Below are positions 468 through 53,591 of a stretch of DNA of 64,000 nt, one piece after another (the stretch's first letter is position 1; each line of letters begins with the position of its first letter). The stretch lies in assembly GCA_964576615.1 (NCBI GenBank), contig CAZNUU010000004.1:4663-68662 (forward strand), read 5' to 3'. A program made the translations under genes and the position numbers. The notes under the pieces are model-generated. The model did not search any database. It was not told the origin of the DNA and saw nothing but the letters and a program-made list of their open reading frames with translations. Origin of the DNA: an uncultured Candidatus Saccharibacteria bacterium (lineage in GTDB: Bacteria; Patescibacteriota; Minisyncoccia; Phycocordibacterales; DATDWN01).

Positions 468-496
468 TTGACATAATATATTTTTTGGTATATAAT
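468..496 (+). promoter_or_regulatory. Sigma70-type consensus promoter for GC-rich cassette A: TTGACA, a 17-nt spacer, then TATAAT.
   Basis: TTGACA lies at 468-473, the spacer at 474-490 and TATAAT at 491-496. GGAGGT follows at 505-510 and the ATG at 516. Confidence 0.55.
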
Positions 497-515
497 TGGG
501 AACAGGAGGTGCGCA

Positions 516-1202
516 ATGACGCACAGATTGACATTGGTGGCCTTGGTGGCCTTGATTGCGTTCTCCGGGGCGGCGTATGCTCAGGAGAAGACGCCGGACG
601 CCTTGGAGGAGTTCATACTCGCAAAGAGTGTAACTCCGCAGGGCGAGACGCCGGAGGACAAGAAGGTCCGGATGCGGGCCATCGAACTTGCGGTGAAAGA
701 ACGCCTCGAACTTCTTGCGAAGGAGGCGCGCAAGTCCGAATCGCGCCTCGACAAAAAGGCGCGCGAGCAAGTCGAGAAGGAAGACAAGAACACTGCCAAG
801 CATGAGCATGAAGAGCGCAAGGCAATCTCACACGCGAACGTGGTCGGCTGTCCAGCAGACAGTGTCTGGGTCAGCTCGAATGCCGAGAACTACGATGTTT
901 TCAATGTCGGGGTGGAGCTGACCGTGGTCAACACGACGCCGCTTTACAAAGACATTCGAACATCGTTTCATGGTTTCGGCACCGTTGTTCGTGGGCTGTG
1001 CCCCGGCGGCTCGATCACGCTCTCCTTCAGACGCCAGATGGCGAAGGATAGCAGCAGCGTGCAAATACCGCTTGCTGCCGTGAGTGAACCGAATCCGGCT
1101 CAGGGGGTGATCGTCGAGGAGAGAAATTTCTACCTCAACGTATCCGACGTTCAGTACAATCGGGTGCGGAGCGAGACCTGGGAGCTCTACCGTCGTCAGT
1201 AA
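516..1202 (+). CDS. GC-rich secreted protein of unknown function (cassette A). It has a signal peptide, a Lys/Glu-rich coiled region and a C-terminal domain.
   Basis: A 228-aa ORF. Its N-terminus MTHRLTLVALVALIAFSGAAYAQE looks like a signal peptide. Its GC content is markedly higher than the flanking genes. It has its own consensus promoter and terminator. Confidence 0.6.
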   Translation: MTHRLTLVALVALIAFSGAAYAQEKTPDALEEFILAKSVTPQGETPEDKKVRMRAIELAVKERLELLAKEARKSESRLDKKAREQVEKEDKNTAKHEHEERKAISHANVVGCPADSVWVSSNAENYDVFNVGVELTVVNTTPLYKDIRTSFHGFGTVVRGLCPGGSITLSFRRQMAKDSSSVQIPLAAVSEPNPAQGVIVEERNFYLNVSDVQYNRVRSETWELYRRQ

Positions 1203-1214
1203 GTTCTTTGCACA

Positions 1215-1266
1215 CGCGGTGGCAATAGTGCCACCGCGAAGGTCGCCAGTAATGGCGGCTTTTTTC
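1215..1266 (+). terminator. Tandem hairpins ending in a T-run, serving as the terminator of cassette A.
   Basis: The first hairpin is cgcggtggc-aatagt-gccaccgcg at 1215-1238. The second is cgcca-gtaa-tggcg followed by cttttttcg at 1244-1266. Confidence 0.55.
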
Positions 1267-1293
1267 GTACTCTAAATATGCTAGTATTTTTTC

Positions 1294-1728
1294 ATGATTT
1301 ATACTTCCAATTCTCTCGAGGAAACAAAAAAAATAGCAGAGGATTTTGTCTCTAATCTTTCTCCAAAAGGTTCTGCAACAGTTGTCGGTCTTTATGGGAA
1401 TTTGGGTGCTGGTAAAACTACACTAACGCAGTTTTTAGCCAAAGCAGTAGGAATCGTTGAGACAGTAACTAGTCCAACTTTTGTAATAGAGAAAATTTAT
1501 GAGCTTCAAGATCAGAAATTTAAATTCCTGATTCACATCGATGCTTATCGCTTGGAAAAACCAGAAGAGTTGGTAAATCTGGGATGGAATAAAATTATTT
1601 CGGAAAGAGAGAACTTGATACTTATTGAATGGCCAGAAAATGTGCAGAATATTATGCCGGAGCATATAAAAATAAAATTAGAAACCCTTGAGGGTGAGAA
1701 TAAACGCCAAATAGAAATAGTAGATTAA
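1294..1728 (+). CDS. tsaE: tRNA threonylcarbamoyladenosine biosynthesis ATPase TsaE (YjeE).
   Basis: It has the P-loop GNLGAGKTT. Its size (144 aa) and the motif LIHIDAYRL are typical of TsaE. Confidence 0.75.
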   Translation: MIYTSNSLEETKKIAEDFVSNLSPKGSATVVGLYGNLGAGKTTLTQFLAKAVGIVETVTSPTFVIEKIYELQDQKFKFLIHIDAYRLEKPEELVNLGWNKIISERENLILIEWPENVQNIMPEHIKIKLETLEGENKRQIEIVD

Positions 1729-1737
1729 TGGAGTATC

Positions 1738-1800
1738 CCCTACACTAAGTTCAACATATTTTGCCAAACGAAGAAGTGATTTTTGTCTAAACTTAGTGTG
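1738..1800. repeat. Near-perfect 15-bp inverted repeat separated by ~33 nt, lying in the tsaE-polA intergenic region.
   Basis: cccctacactaagtt at 1738-1752 pairs with aacttagtgtggggg at 1786-1800. There is one mismatch. Confidence 0.4.
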
Positions 1801-1816
1801 GGGGTATACTTAGTTT

Positions 1817-4174
1817 GTGACCAAGTCTAAAGACAAAAAGACACTAGTCCTCCTCGATGTGCACGCCATAATTCATCGAGCTTATCATGCTCTGCCCGAG
1901 TTCCAATCCTCTCAGGGCGAGCCAACGGGAGCTCTCTATGGTCTTTGCACCATGCTCATCAAGTTGGTTAAGGATTTAAAACCGGACTATCTTATTGCTT
2001 GCTACGATTTACCGGGTGAGACTGTTAGGCACAAAGTTTATAAAGAATATAAAGGCACTAGAAAAGAGATTGATGATGCACTAATAACTCAGCTTGAAAA
2101 ATCAAAAGATGTTTTCAAGGCCCTAAATATTCCGATGTATTCTCATCCAGGTTTTGAGGCCGATGACATGCTCGGCACAATTACTCAGGCTGTTTCCAAA
2201 GATAAAAACATTGATGTAGTCATTGCTTCGGGAGATATGGATACGATGCAGCTCATATCTGGTGAGAAGGTAAGAGTTTATACTTTGCGCAAGGGAATAA
2301 AGGATACTGTCATTTATGACGAAAAAGGAATCATCGAGAGGTTTAAATTTCCACCCAAGTACTTTCCTGATTACAAAGGTTTACGTGGGGATCCATCGGA
2401 TAACATAATCGGCATAGCTGGCATTGGCGAAAAAACAGCCGAGGAACTCATCGTAAAGTTTGGTTCTATTGAAGATATTTATAAAAGACTAAGGAAAGGT
2501 GAGAAAGATTTTATTAAGGCAGGTATAAAACCAAGAATCATCGAGCTTTTAAAACAAGGTGAAGAAGAAGCCTTGTTTTCTAAGATGCTCGCAACTATTA
2601 GGCGAGATGCACCGATTAAATTTAAATTACCTGAAAAACCTTGGGAGGAAGATGTAGATATTCAAAAGGTTGAAAAGCTATTTGTGGAATTGGAGTTTAG
2701 AACACTGGCGACAAAAGTAGCCGAAGTTTTATCAATCGAAGTTGAAAAAAAGGAAGAAAAAGAAGAAAATCCGGATGAAGCTTATGATACTGCTCTCATG
2801 CTCTGGGTAGTTGATTCTAGTAAAACTACGCCAACTTTAGAGGATGCACTTTCTTATACCAGGACAAATACTCTATCTGATGCCAGAAAAGCCCTAGAGA
2901 AAATTATTAAAGACCAGGATCTCTCATTTGTTTTAGATAAGATCGAACGCCCTCTTATTCCGATAATAAAAGAGATGAAAGAAGTAGGCATAAAAATTGA
3001 TGCTGATTTTCTGGACGATTTATCCAAAAAATATCATAGAGAACTAAATAGTCTTGAAAAAAAAATCTGGAAAATAACAGGTGAAGAATTTAATATCGCT
3101 TCCCCAAAACAGTTGGGCGAGATGCTCTTTGTCAAAATGGGTATTAAAACAAAGGGTCAAAAAAAGACAGCCACTGGTGGATTTTCAACCAAGGAATCAG
3201 AATTGGAAAAACTAAAAGACGAGTATCCTATCGCCTCACTTGTACTAGATTATCGGGAATTGGCAAAGCTTTTGGGTACTTATATCGATACTATCCCAAA
3301 ACTTTTAGATAAAAATGAGAGGCTTCACCCAGAATTTTTGCAAGCCGGATCTGCTACAGGCAGAATGGCTAGCCAAAATCCGGGAGTTCAAAATATTCCG
3401 ATTAAAACAGAATTAGGCAGGGAAATTCGCAAGGCTTTTATTGCGGAGAAGGGTTACAAGATTGTTTCATTTGATTACTCCCAAATTGAACTTCGGATCG
3501 CCGCATTTCTGTCCGGTGATAAGAAATTAATTGAGATTTTCAAGAAAGGCGAAGATGTTCATACGGCTGTGGCGTGCGAAGTTTTTGGGGTTAATCCGGA
3601 TGAGGTAACCAAGGCCATGAGATCTCAAGCTAAAGTTATAAACTTTGGTGTCATGTATGGTATGGGGGTAACGGCACTGCAGAAAAATATTGGTACAAAT
3701 AGAGAAGAAGCGCAGAAGTTTTTAAATGAGTATTTCAAAAAATTCTCTGGTTTAGCGGAATATTTAGAGAAAATTAAAAGGCAGACAAGTCAAAAAGGTT
3801 ATACCGAAACGTTTTATGGCAGAAGAAGATATTTTCCAGAAATTCACTCCAGACTCCCATTTATGAAAGCCGCTGCAGAGAGAATGGCAGTTAACGCGCC
3901 TATTCAAGGTACAGAGGCAGACATAATCAAACTGGCCATGATTGAGATCGATAAGGTCCTAGCTTTCAAAAAAATAAAAAAAGATGTGAGACTTTTGCTT
4001 CAAGTTCACGATGAACTTGTCTACGAGATTAAGGTTGATCTGGTCGAAAAAATTGCACCGGAAATAAGGAATATAATGGAAAATGTCCTGCCGCCTGGTA
4101 AGGCTTCTGGAGTAGTCATGGCGGCTGAAGCCAATGCGGGGGATAATTGGGGTGAGTTGAAGAAGTTGCTATAA
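1817..4174 (+). CDS. polA: DNA polymerase I. It has a 5' nuclease domain and a family A polymerase domain, and is short (785 aa).
   Basis: The 5' nuclease N-terminus reads LLDVHAIIHRAYHAL. The polymerase motifs DYSQIELRIAAFLSGD and QVHDELV are present. It has a probable GTG start. Confidence 0.9.
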   Translation: MTKSKDKKTLVLLDVHAIIHRAYHALPEFQSSQGEPTGALYGLCTMLIKLVKDLKPDYLIACYDLPGETVRHKVYKEYKGTRKEIDDALITQLEKSKDVFKALNIPMYSHPGFEADDMLGTITQAVSKDKNIDVVIASGDMDTMQLISGEKVRVYTLRKGIKDTVIYDEKGIIERFKFPPKYFPDYKGLRGDPSDNIIGIAGIGEKTAEELIVKFGSIEDIYKRLRKGEKDFIKAGIKPRIIELLKQGEEEALFSKMLATIRRDAPIKFKLPEKPWEEDVDIQKVEKLFVELEFRTLATKVAEVLSIEVEKKEEKEENPDEAYDTALMLWVVDSSKTTPTLEDALSYTRTNTLSDARKALEKIIKDQDLSFVLDKIERPLIPIIKEMKEVGIKIDADFLDDLSKKYHRELNSLEKKIWKITGEEFNIASPKQLGEMLFVKMGIKTKGQKKTATGGFSTKESELEKLKDEYPIASLVLDYRELAKLLGTYIDTIPKLLDKNERLHPEFLQAGSATGRMASQNPGVQNIPIKTELGREIRKAFIAEKGYKIVSFDYSQIELRIAAFLSGDKKLIEIFKKGEDVHTAVACEVFGVNPDEVTKAMRSQAKVINFGVMYGMGVTALQKNIGTNREEAQKFLNEYFKKFSGLAEYLEKIKRQTSQKGYTETFYGRRRYFPEIHSRLPFMKAAAERMAVNAPIQGTEADIIKLAMIEIDKVLAFKKIKKDVRLLLQVHDELVYEIKVDLVEKIAPEIRNIMENVLPPGKASGVVMAAEANAGDNWGELKKLL

Positions 4175-4289
4175 TTCAGAGAGCAAAAACAAATTTTCTG
4201 GAGCACGGATATTTTCTTACTGGAAAATTCCTCGTGCTCGCGCCGTCGCGCTCCCAAGTCTCCAGAAAACTTATTTTTGCTCTCTGAAT
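4174..4289 (+). repeat. Copy 1 of the conserved-core element. A ~56-nt core is flanked by a 30-bp inverted repeat with 2 mismatches, and the element fills the entire polA-holA intergenic space.
   Basis: The left inverted repeat attcagagagcaaaaacaaattttctggag lies at 4174-4203. The core cacggatattttcttactggaaaattcctcgtgctcgcgccgtcgcgctcccaagt follows. The right inverted repeat ctccagaaaacttatttttgctctctgaat lies at 4260-4289. The next ATG is at 4290. Confidence 0.7.
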
Positions 4290-5012
4290 ATGCTTTATTT
4301 AATTTTCGGTACAGATACAGAAAAGTCTCGCAGAAAGCTCCATGAGCTTTTAGATTCGGCGCAGAAAAAAAGACCAGGCTCGGAGCTATTTAGGATGAAT
4401 ACAGAAAGTTGGGTCGAGGGCAGGTTTGATGAGCTAGTTGTCTCCCAGGGTTTGTTTGAACAGAAATACACTGTTGTTTTGGACAATTTATTTGAAAGAA
4501 AAGAAGTAAAGGATTATGTGTTGGATAGGATTAAGGAAGTGGCAGAATCAAAACAAGTATTCCTCATGCTGGAAAGCAAAATTGATGCGGCTACTCTAAC
4601 TAAAATAAAAAAGGTTGCAAAACAGGTCCAGGAATTTGAAAAAAAAGATGAAGATAAGTTTAGAAAACCAACTGGAAGTATATTTTCGATTGCAGATGGT
4701 TTAGTAAGTAAAGACAAGAAAAAACTTTGGACAAAATTTATTGATTTTATTTACAAAGGTACAGCTCCAGAGGAGATCCATGGAATTTTTTTCTGGCAAG
4801 TAAAAAATATGATTATCTCTCTTAAATCCAGTACTTTAGCAGAAACTGGTCTTTCTCCCTTTGTTTATAAAAATGCCTTAAACGGTTCAAAAAATTATAA
4901 AATAGAAGAACTCCAAAACATGTCTTCCGATTTGGTACAAATGACCCACAGAGTTCGTCAGGGTGAAGGGGATTTGGAAATTATGCTAGAGAAGTGGATA
5001 CTTTCACTTTAG
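4290..5012 (+). CDS. holA: Putative DNA polymerase III delta subunit (HolA-like).
   Basis: The N-terminus MLYLIFGTDTEKSRRKL resembles the HolA N-terminal LYLLYGE motif. Its position after polA fits. It is short (240 aa). Confidence 0.4.
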   Translation: MLYLIFGTDTEKSRRKLHELLDSAQKKRPGSELFRMNTESWVEGRFDELVVSQGLFEQKYTVVLDNLFERKEVKDYVLDRIKEVAESKQVFLMLESKIDAATLTKIKKVAKQVQEFEKKDEDKFRKPTGSIFSIADGLVSKDKKKLWTKFIDFIYKGTAPEEIHGIFFWQVKNMIISLKSSTLAETGLSPFVYKNALNGSKNYKIEELQNMSSDLVQMTHRVRQGEGDLEIMLEKWILSL

Positions 5013-5042
5013 TATGTTAACTTTTTTGAAGAGGTGGTATTT

Positions 5043-5234
5043 ATGCGCCGAGATCGGCAATTTGCGGTTACTCTGTCGTCAGAGGAGGAGAAGAGGGCCA
5101 TAAGGCTTCTAAAGGAAAGCGAGTTTTCCATAAAAGCCATCGCTGTGCGACTGGGGAAGAATGAGGCTCTGATCCGTGACTTAAACCACCGAGAGCAGAT
5201 CAGATCACAAGGGTGGCATGGTCCTTCATGTTAG
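5043..5234 (+). CDS. Small helix-turn-helix-like protein (63 aa) with moderately elevated GC, possibly another cassette (B).
   Basis: The RBS GAGGTGG lies 5 nt before the ATG at 5043. The segment FSIKAIAVRLGKNEALIRDL looks like an HTH. It is followed by a hairpin terminator. Confidence 0.4.
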   Translation: MRRDRQFAVTLSSEEEKRAIRLLKESEFSIKAIAVRLGKNEALIRDLNHREQIRSQGWHGPSC

Positions 5235-5243
5235 CTCTTATGC

Positions 5244-5279
5244 AATGCGGTCACTGAAAATGGCCGCATTCTCTTTTTG
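5244..5279 (+). terminator. Hairpin followed by a T-run.
   Basis: The hairpin is aatgcgg-(13 nt)-ccgcatt, followed by ctctttttg. Confidence 0.45.
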
Positions 5280-5467
5280 TTGATTTTTAGCCTTTTTTCT
5301 TGTATATTTTTCGAGTAGCTAAAGTAATCATGGTCAGGGATATTCTGTTCGCCGACGCGAACAGAATTCCACGACCCTGCCTCACTTGTTTTTTCTACTG
5401 AAAAAACATAGTTCCGGCTCGCATAAGTCTTTGAGAAATCAAAGCAGTTTGATTACTCAAAGCTTAT

Positions 5468-5540
5468 GCGCCCATAACTCAGCTGGTAGAGTAGCTCCCT
5501 TTTAAGGAGAAAGTCGCAGGTCCGATTCCTGCTGGGCGCA
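5468..5540 (+). tRNA. tRNA-Lys, anticodon UUU.
   Basis: The cloverleaf has the acceptor stem GCGCCCA/TGGGCGC and the anticodon loop CTTTTAA. The T-arm is GCAGG-TCCGATT-CCTGC. No CCA is encoded. Confidence 0.8.
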
Positions 5541-5544
5541 CACG

Positions 5545-5575
5545 ACGAATAAAATTCCCTGAACGGGAATTTTTT
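5545..5575 (+). terminator. Hairpin and T-run immediately after tRNA-Lys. It is the first part of the conserved tRNA tail.
   Basis: aaaattccct-gaac-gggaatttttt. Confidence 0.6.
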
Positions 5576-5679
5576 CGTACGTGTGCGAGACGGAGCGCGT
5601 CGTCTGCTCAGGCAGACCCACAAGCGAGTCCGGGTCGGGAAAGTTTTTAGTAAAAAACTATTCCTGACCACATGACTTT

Positions 5680-6378
5680 TTGATTCTATTTGATATAGTT
5701 TTGCTACAAATGAATCTAGAAGAATTTAAAAAGCAGTATGTTATTGGCGAGCTTGGTATAAGCAAGTCTTATGGAAAGATAATGACTGTTATAGATTTTG
5801 GGAATGTTAATTATTGGTTTAATGAGGATAGGCAAGATTCCGAGAATAAGCTTCTGAAAGACGATGAAAAATTTAGGATAAAATTACCAGCCCTTTATGA
5901 CTTTATATCTCTGTTTTCTGACCATGTGCGTTTTTATTATGGTCATGATCCTTCTAGACATGAATCTATTGGCTTTCTTTCAGCAACAAGATCTATATTT
6001 GGTAAAAAAGTATTTACAAAACCAATCCAAAAAGTCAGACATCATCTTTCGCCTGAAGAAATATTTTCAAATAAAAGGGACACATTTTCTGATGGTGAGG
6101 GTGTTTATGTGCATGTTCCAAAATGTAATTTTGATGTAGAAATATCAGTGGACTCGATGCGTCTTTTAGATCAATATGACACATTAGCCTTATTCTCTAG
6201 TGATGCTGATTTTATTAGTTTAATTCGCTTTTTAAAAGGAAAAGGTAAGAAAATTATTTTATTTAAGGGAGGGTTTATTTCTTCTGATTTAAGAAAAGGA
6301 GTTGATAAGATAATAAATGCTCAAAATATTAAGAGACACATTGCTGAGGTCGTAAAAAAGCAAAAACCTGGCATTTAG
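5680..6378 (+). CDS. NYN / LabA-like domain protein.
   Basis: The motif VIDFGNVNYW and the C-terminal LFSSDADFISLIRFLKGKGKKIILF are typical of NYN/LabA proteins (PF01936-like). The true start may be a downstream Met. Confidence 0.55.
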   Translation: MILFDIVLLQMNLEEFKKQYVIGELGISKSYGKIMTVIDFGNVNYWFNEDRQDSENKLLKDDEKFRIKLPALYDFISLFSDHVRFYYGHDPSRHESIGFLSATRSIFGKKVFTKPIQKVRHHLSPEEIFSNKRDTFSDGEGVYVHVPKCNFDVEISVDSMRLLDQYDTLALFSSDADFISLIRFLKGKGKKIILFKGGFISSDLRKGVDKIINAQNIKRHIAEVVKKQKPGI

Positions 6379-6390
6379 CCAGGTTTTGCG
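6364..6390 (+). terminator. Hairpin plus T-run overlapping the stop codon.
   Basis: aacctggc-attta-gccaggttttg. Confidence 0.55.
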
Positions 6391-6509
6391 AACCGATAAC
6401 CCGTATCCACGGGCAGGTATGTAAAGTCTATATCAGTTAAATGAAAATTTCAAGAAGTTGGGGATAATGAATATATTATAGACACAAAAACCCTAATTAT
6501 AAGCTATAT

Positions 6510-6564
6510 AACTTGTGGGGAAATTAAAATGGCTGTTACAGCCATTTTAATTTCCCCACAAGTT
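6510..6564. repeat. Perfect 26-bp palindrome with a 3-nt spacer. It spans the predicted ATG at 6529.
   Basis: acttgtggggaaattaaaatggctg-tta-cagccattttaatttccccacaagt. Confidence 0.8.
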
Positions 6565-7050
6565 GGTGTACAGCTCACAAGTACAAACATTTGTGTCGCA
6601 ATTAGAGATTTTGATATAGAAATTAATGATTTTTTAGAGGGCATCAAAGTTCTTATTAAGTATATCAAAAAACAGAGAAAAAATAAATTTATTGGTATAA
6701 TTAATTTGATGCCGAATAATAGACCTACTCCTCAAGTACTAGAATTAGTTGACGCTCTTAGAAAAAGAGGAGTGGAACTAGAAGTCGAACATTGGGATGG
6801 ACACAAACACATTGACGTCTACATTCCCAAAGATAATTTATATATCGAAGTCGATGGAATGCATCATACAACTAAACCTGAAACTATTATTTCCGATTTA
6901 AATCGTGACTATTTCTCATTTAAGGATGGATTTTTTACCAAACATATAACAAATGAAGCTATCGATACTCATTTAGATGAGATAGCTGATGCAATAGCCC
7001 ATGTCGCCAAAAACGCACCTAATAAAATTGGTGAAAACCTACATTCCTGA
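6529..7050 (+). CDS. DUF559 / Vsr-like (PD-(D/E)xK) endonuclease-domain protein. The N-terminal extent is uncertain.
   Basis: The C-terminal segment HKHIDVYIPKDNLYIEVDGMHH resembles the DUF559 endonuclease fold. The first 12 codons are encoded by the palindrome, so the real start may be a downstream Met, for example MPNNR. Confidence 0.4.
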   Translation: MAVTAILISPQVGVQLTSTNICVAIRDFDIEINDFLEGIKVLIKYIKKQRKNKFIGIINLMPNNRPTPQVLELVDALRKRGVELEVEHWDGHKHIDVYIPKDNLYIEVDGMHHTTKPETIISDLNRDYFSFKDGFFTKHITNEAIDTHLDEIADAIAHVAKNAPNKIGENLHS

Positions 7051-7915: not shown

Positions 7916-8793
7916 CTTATTGAATCCACTATTTTTCCTAGATTGTCATATAATGTAAGCGTCTCGCGGCGGTCCCTCCAAACGCTTCCCGTGTGTTTTA
8001 AATAAACTCTCCATTCATTGCCATAAAAATCGCGGTCGTTTTTGTGTCTATCGACGCAAGATGGATAATTAATTTTTGTATAGATAAAGTTGTTACATTC
8101 ATAGCTAAAACTTGGCGGCAAATTGTCAGTTTGGATTCGGCAAGATGGCATGGAATCAATATAGTCAAAACACGTATCATTTACCGGTGTATTTGGGATA
8201 GAGGAGAGGTCTTCATTTCTAGGAGCAGGACAAGAAGAAGTAATATATGGAATAAAAGTTTGAAATTGAGAAAGATAACCAGAGCATTTGTTTGATTTGA
8301 AGCCTACTCCTACTGGAGAAATTCCAGAGACAACATAGAGATAATCTCCTGAGTTCAGATAGATATTTTGTTCGGAGTTAATTGTAGATGTATAAAAGAG
8401 ATAAGCGCCTTTTGGAATTTGAACTGTTGTGTTGGTGGGGGATTCTTTAAGTGTCCAACCGGTTACGGGAATTGATTCGCTATCATAACTACTGTCTCTT
8501 ATAGCCACATATTCCTGAGATGGATCGTTTGCGTGGCTCACATATAGGAGGGAAACCTTACCTTTATAAACTGAATTTAGCTTTTTATCCTCCTCAACTT
8601 GGATTTTTTTCTGCAAATCTTCAACCTGGCTTTGAGCGTCGTTTACTCCCTCCTGGATGGTAACGTATTTTTGTTCAGGGGTTCTGGCTTCACCTGAGAC
8701 AAGACCATTGTGGTGGGCCCCAGTAGCTCCGCCAAAAAGTAGGGCAGCTATTACTATGCCTAAAATCAAAAGTCCTAATAGGCCATCGTTCAT
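7909..8793 (-). CDS. Membrane-anchored secreted protein with a Cys-rich C-terminal domain. Function unknown.
   Basis: An N-terminal TM segment (LLGLLILGIVIAALLF). Many Cys residues in the C-terminal half. Confidence 0.5.
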   Translation of the reverse strand: MNDGLLGLLILGIVIAALLFGGATGAHHNGLVSGEARTPEQKYVTIQEGVNDAQSQVEDLQKKIQVEEDKKLNSVYKGKVSLLYVSHANDPSQEYVAIRDSSYDSESIPVTGWTLKESPTNTTVQIPKGAYLFYTSTINSEQNIYLNSGDYLYVVSGISPVGVGFKSNKCSGYLSQFQTFIPYITSSCPAPRNEDLSSIPNTPVNDTCFDYIDSMPSCRIQTDNLPPSFSYECNNFIYTKINYPSCVDRHKNDRDFYGNEWRVYLKHTGSVWRDRRETLTLYDNLGKIVDSISY

Positions 8794-8816
8794 GAGTTAA
8801 TTTTATAACAGAATTT

Positions 8817-8916
8817 AACAAATTACATTATTTTGGAGACTTGCGAGCACGACGGCGCGAGCACGAGGAATTTTCTAGCAAGAAAATATCCGTGCTCCAA
8901 AATAATGTAATTTGTT
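8817..8916 (-). repeat. Copy 2 of the conserved-core element, in reverse orientation. It is flanked by a perfect 22-bp inverted repeat.
   Basis: aacaaattacattattttggag lies at 8817-8838 and ctccaaaataatgtaatttgtt at 8895-8916. Between them is the reverse complement of cacggatattttcttgctagaaaattcctcgtgctcgcgccgtcgtgctcgcaagt. Confidence 0.7.
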
Positions 8917-8920
8917 ATTG

Positions 8921-10407: not shown

Positions 10408-10436
10408 TTGACATTTATTCTAGGGTGGGGTTACAT
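10408..10436 (+). promoter_or_regulatory. Promoter of cassette C: TTGACA, a 17-nt spacer, then TTACAT.
   Basis: TTGACA lies at 10408-10413 and TTACAT at 10431-10436. GGGAGGTG lies at 10463-10470 before the ATG at 10476. Confidence 0.45.
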
Positions 10437-10475
10437 AAGCAATAGAAACCAGCAACATGCTGGGGAGGTGACGAC

Positions 10476-19708: not shown

Positions 19709-19717
19709 CACAGACGA

Positions 19718-46979: not shown

Positions 46980-49900
46980 ATGATCGGCGATGCAGTAAAA
47001 AGAATAGTGAGAAAAGAATTTCCTACTGGAAAAACTGTTTTTTCTTCACTCTTAATTTCTCTGTTAGCCCTCTCGCCCCTGCCACTTTTTGCCTCTACTT
47101 ATCAAACTTTAGCCTACCAAGACGTACACAAAGACAGATACCTATTTGCCTTTAATTTGATTTCAAGTGTTCAGAATTCTCTTGCGAATTTAAGTGATGG
47201 CCAGATAGGAAGTAAGTTTTCAGATGAGGAAAATCAGTTAATTTCAGCGAGCCAGCAGAACGCAGATAAGTTAGGAGAATTAATTAATGAAAAAATAGAT
47301 TACTTGGGTTATTCAATAAACCAGGGTTCAGCAGATTTGGTGTACCAAGGAGAATTATTTTTTGAATATATTTTTGGTTTATCTTTGAATAATAATCCAA
47401 GCGGTAATTATAATTTCAAATCACCGATAAGTGGAGGAGTGTCTTTGAGCAATCTTTTTGAAGGCAAAGTGATTTCAAAGTTTAGAAATTTATTTGGTAA
47501 TGGGATCAATTTTCCAAAAGTTGCTGAAGCAAAAAAAATAGTAGAAAAGAAATCGGAACAGATTTCAGAAAAAACGAAAGCTGCCGAAGTTGCAGTTTCA
47601 AATAAACCAGAGCCAAAAGTTTTGGCTGCAAATATTTCTGTTCCAACAAGTGCAATAAAAAAAGTTATAAATAATTATTTGGCTCCAACTCCTAAACAGG
47701 ATGCGGCACTTAGTATTTTACCTAACTACGTAACAAAAAAAGATTTAGACAGTCGCTTGAAGTTATTATCTGAAGAATTTATTAAAAAAATATCGGCAAT
47801 TAACATTAATCCCGTAAGTGGTGACGATTTGGCAAACATATACAGGCAGATCGCTCTAACCCAGAGGATAGACCAAATTTCAAATGTAACCATCAATAAT
47901 TCCTACATTAGCAGCGGTAGTGTCGGGGGTGTCTCTGTGACCAACATTGTTTCAAATACTGGCTCAACAAGTATCCCGAATCTAGTAGTAAACAACACCT
48001 CTACCTCTACATTTGCCGGGGGGGTAGCTATTACAGGCGGATGTATAAGTGTAAATGGTACATGTGTGGGTGGCGGTGGGGGTAGTGGTACACCCGGAGG
48101 TAGTGATGGCCAGATCCAATTTAACAGTGGAGGGACATCATTCGGAGGGTCGTCCAGTTTGGTCTGGGATAATACTAACTTGAGGCTGGGTGTTGGTACA
48201 ACATCACCATACGCTCCACTTTCAGTTGTGGGGCAAATTGTTGCAGCCTATTTTACGGCAACAACAACATTGGTAAATACATTTCCTTATGCTTCAACCA
48301 CAGCTCTGTCGGTTTCCAGTGGACTGACATTGAATACTTCAACTAATGGTCCACTTCAAGCAGTTGGTGGAATTGTTTCAGCTACCACATCGATTGGTGT
48401 TGCGTACGGTGGTACCGGTTGGGCATCTCTTCAATCAAACGCAGTTCTTCTTGGAAATGGTTCAGGGAAAATTGCAACAACATCAGCTGGTACCGACGGG
48501 CAAGTCTTGGCATTAGTAAACGGGGTACCAACCTGGCAATCGACTACAACACTTTCTACAATTACTGGAACACTTACAGTAGGGAAGGGTGGTACTAATG
48601 CAACATCTTTCTCAGCTAACTCGATTGTGGTTTCTGATGCTGCCGGGACAACTCTAATTGCTACTGGGTCGAAACTAACCATTGGCTCACTCCTTTCTAC
48701 CACAACCGCAACATCCACATTTTCTGGAGCACTAGGAATTGGCACGACATCACCTTGGGCAGTATTTTCTGTTAACCCAACGGGAGGTACAGCAGCTGCA
48801 CAATTTGTAGTTGGATCCTCATCTGCAACAAATCTAATCGTGTTAAACTCGGGATTTGTTGGTATTTCCAGTACAACCCCGACATCTAGATTTGGAGTAA
48901 ACCCTCAAGCCGGAGATATAGTAGCTTTTGCAGTAGGTTCTTCAACTAAATCACTTCTCTCCATCTCGACTGAAGGTTTTGGCACCACAACCCTTGCTGG
49001 TCTTAACGTAAATGCTACAGCCACTTCTACATCAAATGTTGGCTGGAATATAAGTAATGGTTGTTATGCTATTTCTGGAACCTGTCTTTCTCTTTCTAAT
49101 TTGGCTGGAACACTTGCTGTCTCCAAGGGCGGAACAAATGCTACTTCTTTTGCAGCTAACTCCATCATTGTCTCTGATGCTGCTGGCACAACTCTCATTG
49201 CAACAACATCAAACAACTTCACACTCGGATCGTTTATTGCCACCTCCACCACACTTAACTCCTACTCACTTAATAACTGGACAGGTTTTGGCACAAGTAC
49301 GCCGGTATACGAAGTTACAATCTCATCTTCTACAGCGCCCCAGTTAGCTTTATCTGCAGGCTCGGGTATAGCGCAGTGGGTATTTAGAAACGGTGGGGGT
49401 GATCTTTATCTCGCGACTACAACTGTCGCGGGAACTGCTACTACCTCAATCACAGCTCTAACCATATCTGGTAGTGGCTTCGGTACCACAACAATCCGCG
49501 GCCTAACTATTGCTAACGGCCAAGCAACTTCTACCTCCAACGTCGGTTGGTCAATCACAAATGGTTGTTACGCTATAGGTACGACCTGTCTATCACTTTC
49601 ATCACTTACTGGAACACTCGCGGTTGCAAGTGGTGGTACTAACTCGACATCTTTTGCGGCTAACTCGATTATCACATCTGATGCCGCCGGAACTACACTC
49701 ATTGCAACAACATCAAACAACTTCACACTCGGATCATTTATTGCCACCTCCACCACACTTAACTCCTACTCACTTAATAACTGGATTGGTTTTGGTACCA
49801 CAACATCGAAGTACCCCTTAACAATTTCATCTTCGACGGCATCTCAACTTGCTCTCTCAGCTAGCTCTGGTTTTGCTCAGGTGGTGTTTAGAAATGATGG

Positions 49901-50801
49901 CACTAACTTTTACATTGCCACAACCACTACTGCTGGTACAGCTACCACTTCAACTCCGGCGATGCAGATAGCAATATCTACTGGTAATGTTGGTTTTGGT
50001 ACAACAACTTCTCTTGGGCCGCTCACCATGAACTCTGGTGCGTTTGTGACAACAGGAGGTACATGGACAAACGCGTCAGATCGAAACTTGAAGGAAAATT
50101 TTGTGGAGCTAGATATTAACGATATCTTAAACAAGATTATGCAGTTGCCGATAACACAGTGGAATTATAAATCTGAAAATATTAACATTCCTCACATCGG
50201 TCCAGTTGCTCAAGATTTCCATGCAATATTTGGTCTTGGTAATTCTGATACATCAATCTCGACCATTGACCCTGCCGGTGTAGCACTTGTGGGTATAAAA
50301 GCTTTATATAAAAAAATCGAAGACATTGGCAAATATTTTGCAGATAATGTTCTTAAAATAAACAAAGTCTCTACGGAAAACCTTTGTGTAAGTGATGATG
50401 AAGGTGAGACGTGTATCACTAGGGCAGAACTTCTAGCACTTCTTTCAAAATCAAAAGGGCAAAGCAGTAATACTCCTCCTCCAACGGCTTCGACAACTCT
50501 GTCTGTCCCGCAAGACACTTCCGCTCCAGTTATTACTATTTTGGGGGATAACCCAGCACAGATAGTTGTTGGCTCAACTTATTCCGACATGGGTGCCACA
50601 GTTTCTGATACCAACGCAGATGGAAGTGTAAATAATAATCTGGGTCTGCACTACACTGTAAATGGTCTAAGTACAGATTCTGTTTCGATTGATACGGCTA
50701 CTTCATCAAGTCACACCGTCGTATATTCGGCAGTAGATTCGTCAGGAAACTGGGGCTATGCAACTCGAACTGTAGAGGTAAAAGAAGCTGTTGCGCCGTA
50801 A
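46980..50801 (+). CDS. Giant secreted protein (1273 aa) resembling a tail fibre. It has a signal peptide, Thr/Ser/Gly-rich beta repeats, a C-terminal intramolecular-chaperone (peptidase S74-like) module, and a DUF5011-like Ig domain.
   Basis: The signal peptide is FSSLLISLLALSPLPLFAS. A ~170-aa unit is repeated (GTLAVSKGGTNATSFAANSI...). The chaperone-like block is LPITQWNYKSENINIPHIGPVAQDFHAIFG...VALVGIKALYKKIEDI. The C-terminal PVITILGDNPAQIVVGSTYSDMGATVSDTNADGS is DUF5011-like. Confidence 0.6.
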   Translation: MIGDAVKRIVRKEFPTGKTVFSSLLISLLALSPLPLFASTYQTLAYQDVHKDRYLFAFNLISSVQNSLANLSDGQIGSKFSDEENQLISASQQNADKLGELINEKIDYLGYSINQGSADLVYQGELFFEYIFGLSLNNNPSGNYNFKSPISGGVSLSNLFEGKVISKFRNLFGNGINFPKVAEAKKIVEKKSEQISEKTKAAEVAVSNKPEPKVLAANISVPTSAIKKVINNYLAPTPKQDAALSILPNYVTKKDLDSRLKLLSEEFIKKISAININPVSGDDLANIYRQIALTQRIDQISNVTINNSYISSGSVGGVSVTNIVSNTGSTSIPNLVVNNTSTSTFAGGVAITGGCISVNGTCVGGGGGSGTPGGSDGQIQFNSGGTSFGGSSSLVWDNTNLRLGVGTTSPYAPLSVVGQIVAAYFTATTTLVNTFPYASTTALSVSSGLTLNTSTNGPLQAVGGIVSATTSIGVAYGGTGWASLQSNAVLLGNGSGKIATTSAGTDGQVLALVNGVPTWQSTTTLSTITGTLTVGKGGTNATSFSANSIVVSDAAGTTLIATGSKLTIGSLLSTTTATSTFSGALGIGTTSPWAVFSVNPTGGTAAAQFVVGSSSATNLIVLNSGFVGISSTTPTSRFGVNPQAGDIVAFAVGSSTKSLLSISTEGFGTTTLAGLNVNATATSTSNVGWNISNGCYAISGTCLSLSNLAGTLAVSKGGTNATSFAANSIIVSDAAGTTLIATTSNNFTLGSFIATSTTLNSYSLNNWTGFGTSTPVYEVTISSSTAPQLALSAGSGIAQWVFRNGGGDLYLATTTVAGTATTSITALTISGSGFGTTTIRGLTIANGQATSTSNVGWSITNGCYAIGTTCLSLSSLTGTLAVASGGTNSTSFAANSIITSDAAGTTLIATTSNNFTLGSFIATSTTLNSYSLNNWIGFGTTTSKYPLTISSSTASQLALSASSGFAQVVFRNDGTNFYIATTTTAGTATTSTPAMQIAISTGNVGFGTTTSLGPLTMNSGAFVTTGGTWTNASDRNLKENFVELDINDILNKIMQLPITQWNYKSENINIPHIGPVAQDFHAIFGLGNSDTSISTIDPAGVALVGIKALYKKIEDIGKYFADNVLKINKVSTENLCVSDDEGETCITRAELLALLSKSKGQSSNTPPPTASTTLSVPQDTSAPVITILGDNPAQIVVGSTYSDMGATVSDTNADGSVNNNLGLHYTVNGLSTDSVSIDTATSSSHTVVYSAVDSSGNWGYATRTVEVKEAVAP
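48570..49800 (+). repeat. Intragenic tandem repeats with a period of about 510-540 nt. The last two units are almost identical over ~130 nt.
   Basis: The segment at 49141-49270 is near-identical to the segment at 49651-49780 (...tcattgcaacaacatcaaacaacttcacactcggatc...). Mirror ORFs appear on the minus strand at 49064-49252 and 49568-49756. Confidence 0.75.
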
Positions 50802-50826: not shown

Positions 50827-51354
50827 ATGGAAGGGGATTTTAACAAGGAAAAACAAGGCAAAAATGACGAGGTTCTAGTTTATGAAGTCTCGTATATTCT
50901 CCTACCTCATATAAATTCCGGGGATGTTCCAGCAAAAGCGGATTCACTAAAGAACGAAATAATCTCCCTGGGCGGCGAGATTATTTCAGGAGAGAACCCA
51001 GTCCTAATTGAACTGTCTTATCCAATGGTCAAAACCGTTGGTGCTACTCGTAATAAAGTTACATCTGGTTATTTTGGCTGGCTAAAGTTTGAACTAAAAA
51101 GAGGGGAGGAGGCGGGGATATTAAAGGTGAAGAAAATGTTAGATGGCAATAGTGATATTGTTCGATTTCTCCTAATAAACACTGTTAGAGAAAACACACT
51201 GCTTAACGGCAAGATGGTTTTAGTAAATGAGGAGAAAGAAAAGAAATCTCCAGACGAAGAGGTGCCTTATGAAGGCGAAAGTACAGAAGTAGTTGAAGAG
51301 AAAAGTACAACCGAAGATATTGATAAGAGTATTGATGATTTAGTAATTGTTTAG
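50827..51354 (+). CDS. rpsF: 30S ribosomal protein S6, with a C-terminal acidic extension.
   Basis: YEVSYILLPHINSGDVPAKADSLKNEI...LIELSYPM is S6-like. The start was taken at MEGDF, because the longer ORF overlaps the upstream gene. Confidence 0.7.
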   Translation: MEGDFNKEKQGKNDEVLVYEVSYILLPHINSGDVPAKADSLKNEIISLGGEIISGENPVLIELSYPMVKTVGATRNKVTSGYFGWLKFELKRGEEAGILKVKKMLDGNSDIVRFLLINTVRENTLLNGKMVLVNEEKEKKSPDEEVPYEGESTEVVEEKSTTEDIDKSIDDLVIV

Positions 51355-51571
51355 AAAATTAAGGAGTGAAACGACTATAATTTACTTAACCCAGCCCCAC
51401 TTTTGGTAAAAAATGAAACAAAATATAAAACAAACAAATAGTGAAAAAATCTCTAGCGACGCGCGAAGGAATACTTCGGCCCTATTCGGGCCAGCGTCGA
51501 GGAATAGTTTACTAGCAAAAGTGGGGCTGGGTGAAGATTTTTATAATCGCTTCGCTCATTAAAAATCAATC
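51355..51571 (+). promoter_or_regulatory. Structured leader element, copy 2. It has the same 5' and 3' modules as 28245-28422, and a possible 49-codon uORF at 51413-51562. It ends 9 nt upstream of the ssb ATG.
   Basis: The 5' module aaaattaaggagtgaaacgactataatttacttaaccca lies at 51355-51393. The covarying arms cccagccccactttt and aaaagtggggctggg pair. The 3' module agatttttataatcgcttcgctcattaaaaatcaatc follows. Confidence 0.55.
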
Positions 51572-52009
51572 ATGTATTTAAACAAAGCACTGATTATAGG
51601 AAATTTAACTAGGGATCCAGAGATGAGGTCTTTGCCGTCTGGCGTAAAAGTATCGAGCTTTTCGGTGGCCACAAACCGAGTCTGGAAAGATAAAAACGGT
51701 GTTAAACAAGAAAATGTTGATTATCACAACGTGGTTGTCTTTGGAAAACAAGCGGATATTGTTTCGCAATATTTGAAAAAAGGATCTTCGATTTTAGTGG
51801 AAGGACGAATGCAGACTCGCAGTTGGGACGATGCTTCGGGGGTGAAAAAATATAGAACGGAAATAATTGCAGAAAGAATCCAGTTTGGACCAAAGAGGGA
51901 AGGTTCAGGTGGCTACGCTGTGCCAATGCCGGAACATGAAGAAAAAAAGGCAATTGATACGATCGAGTATCCCGAAGAAGAAATTAATCCAGATGATATT
52001 CCATTTTAG
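51572..52009 (+). CDS. ssb: Single-stranded DNA-binding protein.
   Basis: The OB fold NKALIIGNLTRDPEMR is present. The acidic C-terminal tip DDIPF is present. Confidence 0.85.
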   Translation: MYLNKALIIGNLTRDPEMRSLPSGVKVSSFSVATNRVWKDKNGVKQENVDYHNVVVFGKQADIVSQYLKKGSSILVEGRMQTRSWDDASGVKKYRTEIIAERIQFGPKREGSGGYAVPMPEHEEKKAIDTIEYPEEEINPDDIPF

Positions 52010-52227: not shown

Positions 52228-52258
52228 AGGAAAGGGGCGACCAGCAAGTCGCCCTCTT
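52228..52258. terminator. Bidirectional GC-rich hairpin. Its stem gggcgac/gtcgccc is shared with the hairpin at 27327-27358.
   Basis: aggggcgac-cagcaa-gtcgccctc. Confidence 0.55.
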
Positions 52259-52260
52259 CT

Positions 52261-52467
52261 TTACCCAACCATCCCTTCTATTCTTGCGATCAAGGCGATG
52301 ACGTGCATTCTCACTATCTCGGGTTCGATGTAGCCCCAATCCGTACGATTCCGCATTGTCTCGAGGTACCTTCGTAGTTCCTCCAAGCGGGCCTTCTTGT
52401 CGAATCCGGCTGCAAGACCTGAAACGAATCGCATCTCGTCTCCAGTCGAATAAATGAAATCGCTCAT
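52261..52467 (-). CDS. GC-rich 68-aa protein of unknown function (cassette G).
   Basis: The minus-strand promoter TTGAAA-N17-TACTAT lies at 52482-52511. GGAGGC lies 3 nt before the ATG. Confidence 0.45.
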   Translation of the reverse strand: MSDFIYSTGDEMRFVSGLAAGFDKKARLEELRRYLETMRNRTDWGYIEPEIVRMHVIALIARIEGMVG

Positions 52468-52512
52468 AGAGCCTCCAGCGCAATAGTAATATTTTAAAGC
52501 TCAGATTTCAAG

Positions 52513-53094
52513 TTAGAAATTTGCACCACCAACTCTTTCTGTGTATTCGCCAGACTCGGTGTTAATTCGGATAGTATCTCCTTCTTTTATAAACATAGGC
52601 ACTTGAAGTTCTACTCCAGTTTCTACCTTTACACTCTTTGTGCCGCCTTGAGCTGTGTTACCTTTTACTGCAGGATGAGCCTCGATAACCTTAAGTTCTA
52701 CTTTTATTGGCATATCGACTCCAATCATCTTTTCTCCAAAGTACATTATCTCAATAACTGTGTTTGGTTTTAGAAATTTTCCTCGTGGTCCAATGACATC
52801 CTCCTTTAACGAAAATCTTTTGGATGGATCTTTTGGGTCGCAGAACCAGTATTCACCTCTGTTGTTGTATAGGTATTTTGCTTCTTTGGAATCAATTTCT
52901 GCTTCCTCTACCTTTTCAGACACATGAAAAGATCTCTCGGTTACTTTGCCAGTAATAAGATTTTTTAGTTTCGTAGCGTTAACTGGTTTTCTTTGCTGTT
53001 TTCTAAAAACATGGGCGTCAATAACTTCCCATGGTTCTCCATCGAGAACTATGTATTTTCGAAGTGTAACCTCACTGTAATCTAGCATTGCCAT
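52513..53094 (-). CDS. efp: Elongation factor P.
   Basis: RKYIVLDGEPWEVIDAHVFRKQQRKPVNATKLKNLITGKV matches EF-P, including the KPG/KNL loop region. Confidence 0.9.
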   Translation of the reverse strand: MAMLDYSEVTLRKYIVLDGEPWEVIDAHVFRKQQRKPVNATKLKNLITGKVTERSFHVSEKVEEAEIDSKEAKYLYNNRGEYWFCDPKDPSKRFSLKEDVIGPRGKFLKPNTVIEIMYFGEKMIGVDMPIKVELKVIEAHPAVKGNTAQGGTKSVKVETGVELQVPMFIKEGDTIRINTESGEYTERVGGANF

Positions 53095-53199
53095 CCCATT
53101 AGAGATTTAAAATAATAAATTTCCCGGTCGATCTTCGTTAGCTGAATCTCTAACGGGACAAGTAGGGGAATAATAGCTAATTTAAGCCATTTTATCTAC

Positions 53200-53235
53200 T
53201 TGACATTTTATAATATATATTTACAATGTGGTTTA
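53200..53235 (+). promoter_or_regulatory. Promoter of cassette H: TTGACA, a 16-nt spacer, then TACAAT.
   Basis: TTGACA lies at 53200-53205. The -10 element is TACAAT. GGAGGT lies before the ATG at 53248. Confidence 0.5.
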
Positions 53236-53247
53236 GGAGGTCGAAGT

Positions 53248-53436
53248 ATGAGATGGTTCGTAAAACGCATTCGTGGTGCCCAGGAGCACGTTGTGGGATT
53301 CGCAAACGACCACAATCTCAAACCGGGCGAGCTACTCGTCATCTCGTCAGATCCAGGAGAGTACAGCCGCTTTGGCGGTGGTCGGGAAGCTTCGGTTCTG
53401 CTAATGTACTACGCAGAAAAGGAGCTCGAGTCATGA
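53248..53436 (+). CDS. GC-rich 62-aa protein, first gene of cassette H.
   Basis: The protein reads MRWFVKRIRGAQEHVVGFANDHNLKPGELLVISSDPGEYSRF... Its stop overlaps the next ATG in an ATGA arrangement. Confidence 0.45.
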   Translation: MRWFVKRIRGAQEHVVGFANDHNLKPGELLVISSDPGEYSRFGGGREASVLLMYYAEKELES

Positions 53437-53591
53437 CTCGAAGAATTGTCGGAGGATTTCTCGTCCTCGGTGCGATCATTATGGGAGTCATTCAGTATCG
53501 AACAGACAATCGTGATCTCATCGTGATCGGTGGTCTCACACTCGGTGTCGGGCTCATTCTGCTCTTCCCCAAAAGACAAGGCGTCTTGTAG
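53433..53591 (+). CDS. GC-rich 52-aa two-TM membrane peptide, second gene of cassette H.
   Basis: The protein reads MTRRIVGGFLVLGAIIMGVIQYRTDNRDLIVIGGLTLGVGLILLFPKRQGVL. Confidence 0.45.
   Translation: MTRRIVGGFLVLGAIIMGVIQYRTDNRDLIVIGGLTLGVGLILLFPKRQGVL

Follow-up and report, generated by a model that had tools for sequence, protein, structure and literature searches.

Why does an AT-rich bacterial genome carry, between its conserved housekeeping genes, short segments whose G+C (GC) content is far above that of their surroundings? The question is raised by a stretch of 64 kb with 40.1% GC (the window), part of a contig that is 72.5 kb long in NCBI and comes from read sample SRR12313479. An earlier note, made from the letters alone, had picked out eight GC-rich segments, here C1 to C8, and read them as a dispersed family of cassettes, each with a promoter, a Shine–Dalgarno (SD) site, a small open reading frame (ORF), and a terminator, that had been acquired repeatedly, possibly from a high-GC host or as cargo of an unrecognized mobile system. 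On balance, we favor gene transfer within the phylum and the exchange of alleles at recombination hot spots, with expression from host-type promoters; the segments would then be neither a mobile-element family nor DNA captured from a host organism. They would represent the accessory, exchangeable part of the genome, drawn from a gene pool that circulates within a phylum whose genomes range from ∼28 to 60% GC and include higher-GC Paceibacteria of 56–60%. The units are listed below, with the GC content of each segment (its ORF or ORFs) and GC at third codon positions (GC3).

C1, 468-1265, plus strand: promoter TTGACA-17-TATAAT at 468-496, GGAGG at 505-509, ORF 516-1202, double GC hairpin with T-run at ∼1216-1265; 57.4% GC, GC3 0.72; a 228-amino acid protein with signal peptide, Lys/Glu-rich helix, and C-terminal domain.
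C2, 5043-5280, plus strand: ORF 5043-5234, terminator hairpin 5244-5270; 51.0% GC, GC3 0.55; 63 amino acids, weak helix-turn-helix (HTH) similarity.
C3, 10408-11018, plus strand: promoter TTGACA-17-TTACAT at 10408-10436, GGAGG at 10464-10468, ORF 10476-10982, terminator 10990-11018 of 13 pairs; 50.5% GC, GC3 0.56; 168 amino acids, both termini hydrophobic.
C4, 23495-23933, minus strand: promoter TTGACT-16-TAATAT at 23933-23906, ORF 23888-23541, shared bidirectional terminator 23495-23520; 60.1% GC, GC3 0.71; 115 amino acids, a stand-alone peptidoglycan-binding-like domain.
C5, 26953-27358, plus strand: promoter TTGACA-17-TATAAA at 26953-26981, ORF 27002-27319, imperfect GC hairpin at ∼27324-27358; 52.2% GC, GC3 0.55; 105 amino acids, predicted all-helical.
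C6, 28955-32491, both strands: five genes, itemized further on; 51.7% GC.
C7, 52234-52511, minus strand: promoter TTGAAA-17-TACTAT at 52511-52483, ORF 52467-52261, shared bidirectional terminator 52234-52255; 50.2% GC, GC3 0.59; 68 amino acids.
C8, 53200-53645, plus strand: promoter TTGACA-16-TACAAT at 53200-53227, overlapping ORFs 53248-53436 (62 amino acids, GC3 0.57) and 53433-53591 (a 52-amino acid membrane peptide, GC3 0.53), hairpin with T-run at ∼53592-53645; 52.0% GC.

The compositional contrast that the note had judged by eye is real: the eight segments have 50.2–60.1% GC and the remainder of the window 38.8%, and together they make up 6,140 bp, or 9.6% of the window. Codon usage is fully bimodal, with the 13 segment genes at GC3 0.53–0.72 and the 50 native ORFs of at least 100 amino acids at 0.22–0.40, without overlap (Mann–Whitney U = 650, p = 1.8e-8). 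The overall GC content of the segment genes is 0.48–0.60, against 0.38, and GC at the first and second codon positions (GC1 and GC2) is raised in the same direction. Arg, His, Cys, and Trp are used about 2× as much as in native genes and Lys, Asn, and Ile about 0.6×, and synonymous choice is flipped, with AAG at 58% versus 31% and CTC and CTG replacing TTA and CTT. Both composition and codon usage thus deviate in the manner of transferred islets. The pattern fits genes long equilibrated at roughly 52–57% GC and not young ORFs born from the local AT-rich DNA. Translational selection for GC-ending codons was also rejected; it is not general in this genome, because ribosomal-protein and other highly expressed native genes have a GC3 of 0.22–0.30, the ribosomal-protein genes being the lowest in the window.

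The expression signals are as described in the note, with all six quoted σ70 promoters (C1, C3, C4, C5, C7, and C8) in place and the quoted GGAGG sites and hairpin terminators present. The C1 promoter matches the consensus at 12/12 positions, that of C8 at 11/12, and those of C4 and C7 at 9/12 each, while those of C3 and C5 were identified by direct reading; it is at cassette ends that the strongest GC-rich terminator hairpins of the window are located. Taken as a class, promoter-like sites show no enrichment over shuffles of the sequence (observed vs. shuffled, 58 vs. 51, 32 vs. 37, and 40 vs. 45), and native promoters of equal quality occur, for example, at 7442 (minus), 27357 (plus), 57797 (minus), and 58732 (plus). 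The cassette promoters are therefore the organism's normal type and not a cassette hallmark. The proposed layout holds for most units and fails for C2, a unit without its own promoter, and the label of small-ORF cassette does not suit C6, which consists of five enzyme genes. Most units would be transcribed independently, from a host-type σ70 promoter through GGAGG and ORF to an intrinsic terminator, which in many cases also serves the neighboring gene. Two terminator stems recur: a near-identical stem GAGCCGCACC…GGTGCGGCTC occurs twice (23495-23520 and 31973-31996) and a stem GGGGCGAC…GTCGCCCC three times (27326-27355, 30958-30987, and 52234-52255), which may reflect chance among GC-rich terminators or a preferred design of the lineage.

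The organism can be placed by its core genes, which in the window include a pilB-like ATPase gene, tsaE, polA, holA, ruvA, rpsT, secE-nusG-rplK, argS, ileS, recO, rpsF-ssb-rpsR, efp, recA, and ftsK, in an order common to the window and dozens of relatives (the compared loci carry L-numbers, L001, L002, and so on; W denotes the window's own sequence). The nearest relatives of its PolA, NusG, EF-P, and ThyA are uncultured Patescibacteria labeled Paceibacterota, Minisyncoccia, Parcubacteria, or Zambryskibacteria, some being metagenome-assembled genomes (MAGs) with an automatic “Saccharibacteria” label. The source organism is an AT-rich member of the Patescibacteria, class Paceibacteria (Minisyncoccia in NCBI), close to “Candidatus Zambryskibacteria”; the closest available relative is L166, from the same MAG (CAZQKP01) as L002 (EF-P, 96%).

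Against this syntenic background, the segments would be restricted to a few intergenic slots flanked by conserved core genes, and three layers can be proposed. C2, C3, C5, C7, and C8 are lineage-specific orphan insertions and C4, which has no homologue, is probably another; together they would form the first layer. The C3 site, between ruvA and rpsT, is empty in 22/25 relatives, where the gap measures 24–178 bp. The C7 site, between rpsR and efp, is likewise empty in L168 (31 bp, with one shared terminator) and is filled in L166 by an unrelated 152-amino acid gene of GC 0.53 in the opposite orientation and in L167 by an AT-rich GNAT acetyltransferase gene of GC 0.29; in the window the C7 promoter abuts the efp stop codon. 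At the C8 site, between efp and recA, L168 has only 47 bp and L167 has other small membrane ORFs. The C5 site lies between a SIMPL gene and secE, whose native promoter (27357) directly follows the C5 hairpin; here most of 50 relatives have secE only and roughly a dozen have unrelated genes, among them L162 with an unrelated 212-amino acid gene of GC 0.60 that has its own TTGACA promoter and GC hairpin. For C4, the neighborhood upstream of yjbQ differs in all sampled relatives, and synteny is lost. Because GC-rich and AT-rich occupants are found at the same sites, the slots accept foreign genes of any composition.

C2 starts 30 nt past the holA-like gene, has no homologue in 23 syntenic relatives, and sits in a site that spans 554–3505 bp of varied content among relatives. 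It adjoins tRNA-Lys (5468-5541) and two AT-rich accessory genes, an NYN-domain gene (5680-6378) and a gene with a DUF559/Vsr-like endonuclease fold (6529-7050), with GC3 0.23–0.24 and found in 0/23 syntenic relatives. The region 5680-7050 is an accessory islet whose compositional sign is opposite to that of the GC-rich cassettes. The flanks of tRNA-Lys (5300-5460 and 5545-5660) are themselves GC-rich, noncoding, and rich in hairpins, one of which, AAATTCCCTGAACGGGAATTT, recurs beside tRNA-Arg(TCT) at 19706-19741; this flank region, also conserved in L006 and other relatives, accounts for some of the raised GC next to C2.

The second layer would be an older five-gene thymidylate/nucleotide island, C6, inherited through the clade and GC-elevated in the closest subclade only. 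Its genes, assigned with Pfam and NCBIfam, are as follows.

28955-29584, plus strand: cytidylyl/adenylyl-transferase-like gene.
29581-30441, plus strand: gene for a dCMP-deaminase-domain protein of 286 amino acids.
30458-30913, minus strand: gene for a HIT protein.
30999-31907/31949, minus strand: gene for ThyA.
32000-32491, minus strand: gene for DHFR.

Terminators lie at 30958-30987 and 31973-31996 and promoter-like sites at 31967-31940 and 32542-32514. ThyA (PF00303, 178.9 bits) and DHFR (PF00186, 168.5 bits) are full-length and above the curated threshold, and ThyA also matches TIGR03284 (131.6 bits vs. a cut-off of 108). Downstream of rplK, many relatives in the Paceibacteria have the same five genes, and the closest clade (L162, L163, L164, and L170) has the identical island order after rplK, with ThyA 65–69% identical. 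The best matches of ThyA have 59–74% identity, and the named ones are Patescibacteria or Minisyncoccia except for one “Thermoplasmatota” MAG at 61%. In GC3 the island reaches 0.55–0.65 in the window, the highest seen, and 0.35–0.60 in the closest clade against flanks of 0.23–0.37, and it is at background composition in 33 more distant relatives (mean GC3 difference −0.001). Most simply, a higher-GC version would have replaced the island long ago in the subclade's ancestor and then ameliorated in part. The fourfold-degenerate sites of ThyA are at random-expectation identity between all pairs of closest-clade lineages, however, and the flanking genes are saturated too; given this saturation the account is a tight fit, and continued exchange or a maintaining force would be compatible as well.

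The third layer would be the C1 slot between the pilB-like gene and tsaE, where a promoter, start, and terminator are conserved around a hypervariable secreted-protein body that is seemingly exchanged between species. Homologues of C1 occupy the same slot in nine relatives (L002, L003, L005, L006, L049, L053, L171, L172, and L175). Across the ten lineages the gene has GC 0.49–0.59 (mean 0.55) and GC3 0.51–0.72 (mean 0.65), against backgrounds of GC 0.36–0.43 (mean 0.39) and a mean GC3 of 0.35 (Wilcoxon p = 0.002). The family comprises at least 131 clusters at 50% identity, all of ∼200–300 amino acids, whose common features are a signal peptide or lipobox, a helical region rich in charge, and a C-terminal domain in which two Cys are invariant and the motif LCPGGS occurs; it was recovered at the pilB/tsaE slot only, and its named members are only Zambryskibacteria or Parcubacteria hypothetical proteins. 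A single-sequence AlphaFold model of C1 (predicted local distance difference test [pLDDT] 48) is moderately confident only in the long N-terminal helix. More distant relatives have, in the same slot, nonhomologous small lipoprotein genes of GC 0.49–0.63 whatever the background; in the 57% GC genome L008, such a gene equals the background.

Around the C1 ORF, the signals are far more conserved than the protein. All ten lineages (seven aligned promoters plus L171, L172, and L175) have the same −35 hexamer, TTGACA, and a TATAAT-like −10 element has G or TG just upstream, while the spacer around these elements varies. Such an invariant, near-consensus promoter implies selection for strong expression. 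Between W and L002, whose PolA proteins are 87% identical, the promoter, SD, first four codons, stop codon, and terminator of C1 are ∼90% identical by eye, whereas protein identity over the ORF body is only 34%. The similarity of C1 between lineages is also uncorrelated with that of PolA (Spearman 0.17, p = 0.25). C1 of W is nearest to L171 and L175 (∼40% identity, 157–162 bits) and not to its sister L002 (30%, 104 bits), and C1 of L006 is nearest to L049 and L003 and not to its sister L005. Fourfold sites of C1 are at random-expectation identity between all pairs, and the flanking genes are saturated too; yet at the fourfold sites common to W and L002 the GC content (GC4) is 0.85 (W) and 0.61 (L002), against 0.22–0.37 next door. 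The high GC of C1 is therefore no fading relic of a single ancestral event. These patterns suggest that the slot is a conserved site of expression and that species exchange its ORF by drawing on a GC-rich pool of alleles. As an aside, a small hairpin (GTGCG-CAATGA-CGCAC, 505-531) directly after GGAGG has the C1 start codon in its loop; this hairpin, conserved in L002 together with the first four codons, could control translation initiation.

Nothing was found that joins the units into a family. A repeat search of the window detected no DNA repeat linking the cassettes, only similar terminator stems (23495-23520 vs. 31973-31996); the cassette proteins show no similarity to one another and, C1 and the island excepted, none to proteins of 170 related loci. 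The idea of a dispersed family is thus not borne out. Searches of the small proteins against Pfam, PHROGs, PADLOC, and NCBIfam returned only weak matches, HTH for C2 and peptidoglycan-binding for C4, with no family for C3, C7, or either C8 protein. The C5 model (five helices, pLDDT 66) gave no match at E < 0.2 in PDB or BFVD with Foldseek.

An unrecognized mobile system fares no better. There were no integrase-like, transposase, or phage structural or repressor genes among the ORFs examined in the window, no target-site duplications when occupied and empty sites were compared, no flanking direct repeats, and no relatives in viral-contig scans with C1, C3, C5, and ThyA; adjacency to a tRNA gene is limited to C2. 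Integron cassettes are similar in being small single-ORF modules of foreign composition placed serially, but they are promoterless, bear attC, and are clustered at an integrase and attI, whereas the window units have their own promoters (except C2), are dispersed over 53 kb, and have in common no inverted or direct repeat family. A diversity-generating retroelement (DGR) is equally unapparent, with no repeat copy of any cassette and no reverse transcriptase seen in the window. DGR-type adenine mutagenesis was rejected as the cause of the high GC: third positions are depleted of A and of T to an equal extent, and a template repeat is lacking.

Collectively, the foreign composition, the units' own signals (except in C2), and the patchy sites agree with the note's proposal of acquired, self-contained expression units for most segments. 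C1 and C6 are fixed in place; conservation in place, which the note had named as a sign of ancestral DNA, was found for these two of the eight segments and not for the others compared, while presence/absence or replacement polymorphism was found for C2, C3, C5, C7, and C8 and not for C1 and C6. In bacteria, DNA of foreign origin is usually more AT-rich than the recipient. Among ∼100 related loci, atypical genes deviate toward the intermediate GC of the phylum range: GC-high outliers are 5.2% of genes in loci of 36–40% GC, and GC-low outliers ∼1.9% of genes in loci of 44–56% GC. DNA uptake, followed by homologous or homology-facilitated recombination in the conserved flanks, may have delivered the genes without any dedicated mobile element. 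The products (secreted, membrane, wall-binding, and small cytosolic proteins) would, to judge from their sequences, suit roles at the cell surface or in interactions with hosts or phages.

Intra-phylum transfer of this general kind, in islets at hot spots, is already known. A study of 125 Patescibacteria genomes from groundwater put the share of genome length due to horizontal gene transfer at up to 13%; of the transfers, 83% were within the phylum, and thyA was one of the genes transferred (PMC12455944). The window resembles those islets in atypical composition and codon use, patchy presence at otherwise syntenic sites, reuse of a few sites by unrelated genes, mainly within-phylum affinity, and thyA, and differs from them in that its units are very small (0.2–0.7 kb), are single transcription units, and show no mobility genes (PMC12455944). 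It is also unlike them in that two of the eight units are conserved in place and most inserts are GC-richer than the recipient.

Several observations weigh against intra-phylum transfer and exchange. No donor was identified for any cassette. The ten proteins looked up are all singleton clusters at 90% identity, and a word-indexed search of 5.8 billion clusters with C4 returned itself only; because of these singletons and the lack of a C4 homologue, transfer is deduced from composition and patchy distribution only. No recombination signature, in the form of repeats or breakpoints, was found at the junctions. The outlier statistics come from loci centered on three anchor genes only and so do not constitute a genome-wide sample, and the incongruence of C1 is based on identities of 20–46%, for which unequal rates could be part of the explanation. 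GC is high in ten C1 lineages and five island lineages despite saturation of the synonymous sites, so that passive retention after one old transfer fits poorly and either repeated import or a GC-maintaining force is required.

A force of the latter kind is the essence of the strongest alternative, which we nevertheless regard as unlikely: high GC would be a state maintained in situ in resident genes, by GC-biased gene conversion (gBGC) at recombination-prone diversifying loci or by mRNA or codon selection on strongly expressed, fast-evolving genes, and no mark of foreign origin. The alternative draws strength from the C1 family, GC-rich in all ten lineages over backgrounds of 0.36–0.43, with an invariant near-consensus promoter and a high GC4 at randomized fourfold sites (0.85 in W, 0.61 in L002). 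It is also consistent with the nonhomologous lipoprotein genes of the slot, GC-rich whatever the background (at background in L008), and with the elevation of the island in five lineages despite saturated synonymous sites. However, the low GC3 of ribosomal-protein and other highly expressed native genes (0.22–0.30) counts against such selection, the same slots hold AT-rich or background-GC inserts in relatives, and the island is at background GC in the 33 more distant relatives. Moreover, the similarities of C1 cross the species tree, and repeated import alone can explain the persistence. The effect of gBGC in bacteria is reportedly much smaller than the GC3 gap seen here (∼0.7 vs. 0.33).

Within our favored account of transfer and exchange, the persistence of high GC at C1 is unexplained and potentially the more novel element. 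Tentatively, and while thinking it unlikely in full, we suggest that the pilB/tsaE slot of Zambryskibacteria-like Patescibacteria is a conserved expression site with a hypervariable, cross-species-exchanged secreted or lipoprotein body held at ∼55% GC despite genomes of 36–47%. If so, the slot would imply a GC-favoring process (for instance, biased gene conversion acting on a diversifying locus) or an allele pool that evolves separately, it would be a surface-variation system of a kind undescribed in the candidate phyla radiation (CPR), and the remaining GC-rich cassettes would show the same regime in weaker form. A literature search for GC-rich conserved loci in CPR genomes gave only general surveys of horizontal gene transfer and an unrelated hypervariable repeat gene. 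Hypervariable surface loci, as generally known from O-antigen and capsule clusters and from the GC-rich vls of AT-rich Borrelia, are like C1 in their fixed position and conserved flanks, their exported and divergent products, their alleles that cross the species tree, and their GC content decoupled over long periods from that of the genome. They are unlike it in that C1 is a single gene of 0.7 kb, without a cluster, G-runs, or strong GC skew. Within the 64-kb window, C1 was found to have no paralogues and no silent donor cassettes of the vls or pilE type.

Capture from a high-GC host or partner of the presumed episymbiont, the source suspected in the note, seems improbable. GC1, GC2, and GC3 do match a donor of roughly 52–57% GC, and secreted, membrane, and wall-binding products could act at a host interface. 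Yet ThyA, the sole phylogenetically informative gene, is of Patescibacteria type, its named best matches being Patescibacteria with the exception of the one Thermoplasmatota-labeled MAG, and a donor outside the Patescibacteria is therefore unsupported. The whole island is syntenic within the Paceibacteria, and the C1 family was recovered only at the pilB/tsaE slot, with its named members in Zambryskibacteria and Parcubacteria. Recent capture from a sampled host lineage should have left matches, whereas C4 has no homologue in 5.8 billion clusters and the small proteins are unmatched in 170 loci. The promoters and SD sites follow the recipient's own grammar, and Paceibacteria of 56–60% GC are closer potential donors.

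We give little credence to a phage origin, whether as morons or as degraded prophage remnants, even though the units have moron-like architecture in being autonomous promoter–ORF–terminator modules (again excepting C2) for small orphan proteins of deviant composition. C4 is similar to endolysin wall-binding domains (E = 4e-7 to endolysin families of PHROG; E = 1e-3 to PG_binding_1, a match short of the curated cut-off; E = 0.006 to PDB 4lpq), and genes for ThyA, DHFR, and dCMP deaminase are common phage cargo, the deaminase matching PHROG 174 at E = 3e-23. Morons, however, lie by definition between prophage genes, whereas each cassette here lies between core housekeeping genes and none in a prophage: the neighbors are polA, tsaE, ruvA, rpsT, secE, nusG, efp, recA, and rpsR, flanks that are kept in dozens of relatives. 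Phage structural, integrase, and repressor genes were not seen in the parts of the window examined, the four viral-contig scans were empty, the only other PHROG match among the scanned proteins was a weak one of HIT (to a PHROG of unknown function, E = 0.002), and the island is chromosomal and syntenic across the class. Finally, an assembly or binning artefact, in which reads of GC-rich organisms were inserted chimerically, might be suspected in a metagenome-assembled contig whose composition shifts sharply at gene borders, but this explanation, which the note had already judged unlikely, is excluded for practical purposes by independent assemblies and by conservation in relatives: the pilB-C1-tsaE-polA junctions were recovered in the independent Logan assembly L001 (from SRR12313479), the C3, C4, and C7 proteins are each on record on two contigs, relatives from different studies bring the lineages with a GC-rich gene in the same slot behind the same promoter to ten, and the junctions sit exactly between terminators and promoters.

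Because Patescibacteria genomes are tiny, strongly syntenic, and those of cell-dependent organisms, their few variable genes are the best candidates for interactions with hosts and phages. The window shows that such genes can be picked by composition alone, and that they use a small set of reusable intergenic slots, where they arrive as ready-made transcription units. If the GC persistence of C1 reflects a real GC-favoring process or a cross-species allele pool, the slot would be a tractable natural test case for gBGC in bacteria and C1 a previously unnoticed variable surface protein in the phylum; if it does not, the locus is an ordinary example of intra-phylum gene transfer.

Several other features of the window and of related loci deserve mention. 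The relative L162 has a DGR (2644-5222) with reverse transcriptase and bAvd beside a GC-rich gene for 217 amino acids (GC 0.56 in a contig of 40% GC), and L175 has a bAvd-like gene between polA and holA (8656-9030). A dispersed intergenic element of ∼80–100 nt is present in the window at 4191-4274 (inverted), 8827-8906, and 54971-55054, and incompletely at 24491-24539 and 24607-24639. Its GC-rich core (…GAGCACGACGGCGCGAGCACGAGGAATTTTCTAGCAAGAAAATATCCGTGCTC…) is conserved and the inverted repeats at its ends vary; the element is predicted to form a long hairpin of −40 to −52 kcal/mol, and sits at the 3′ ends of genes (after polA, for example), with further copies in L002 (same position), L003, L053, and L122. 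No Rfam family matched the element at the gathering threshold; it may be similar to repetitive extragenic palindromic (REP) elements or miniature inverted-repeat transposable elements (MITEs), a structured terminator, or a small RNA.

Two further regions of raised GC have native or lower GC3. At 46980-50801, a signal-peptide protein of 1273 amino acids has internal repeats 504–540 bp apart and 76% identical; this large repetitive surface protein has 45–48% GC with a native GC3 of 0.31, so that its GC bump stems from amino-acid content, unlike that of the cassettes. The region 62860-63620 combines 48–49% GC with an extreme GC skew (+0.45 to +0.48), and its sole long ORF is a proline-rich frame on the minus strand with GC3 0.17, the true coding strand being ambiguous. 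Lastly, 44 nt at 28240-28283 are repeated exactly at 51350-51393, and 28369-28425 resembles 51518-51574 (86%). These promoter and leader copies precede two unrelated operons, upstream of rplK and upstream of ssb, and the copy on the ssb side forms a 55-nt inverted repeat (51359-51413 and 51508-51562); the duplicated sequence could act as a shared regulatory leader.

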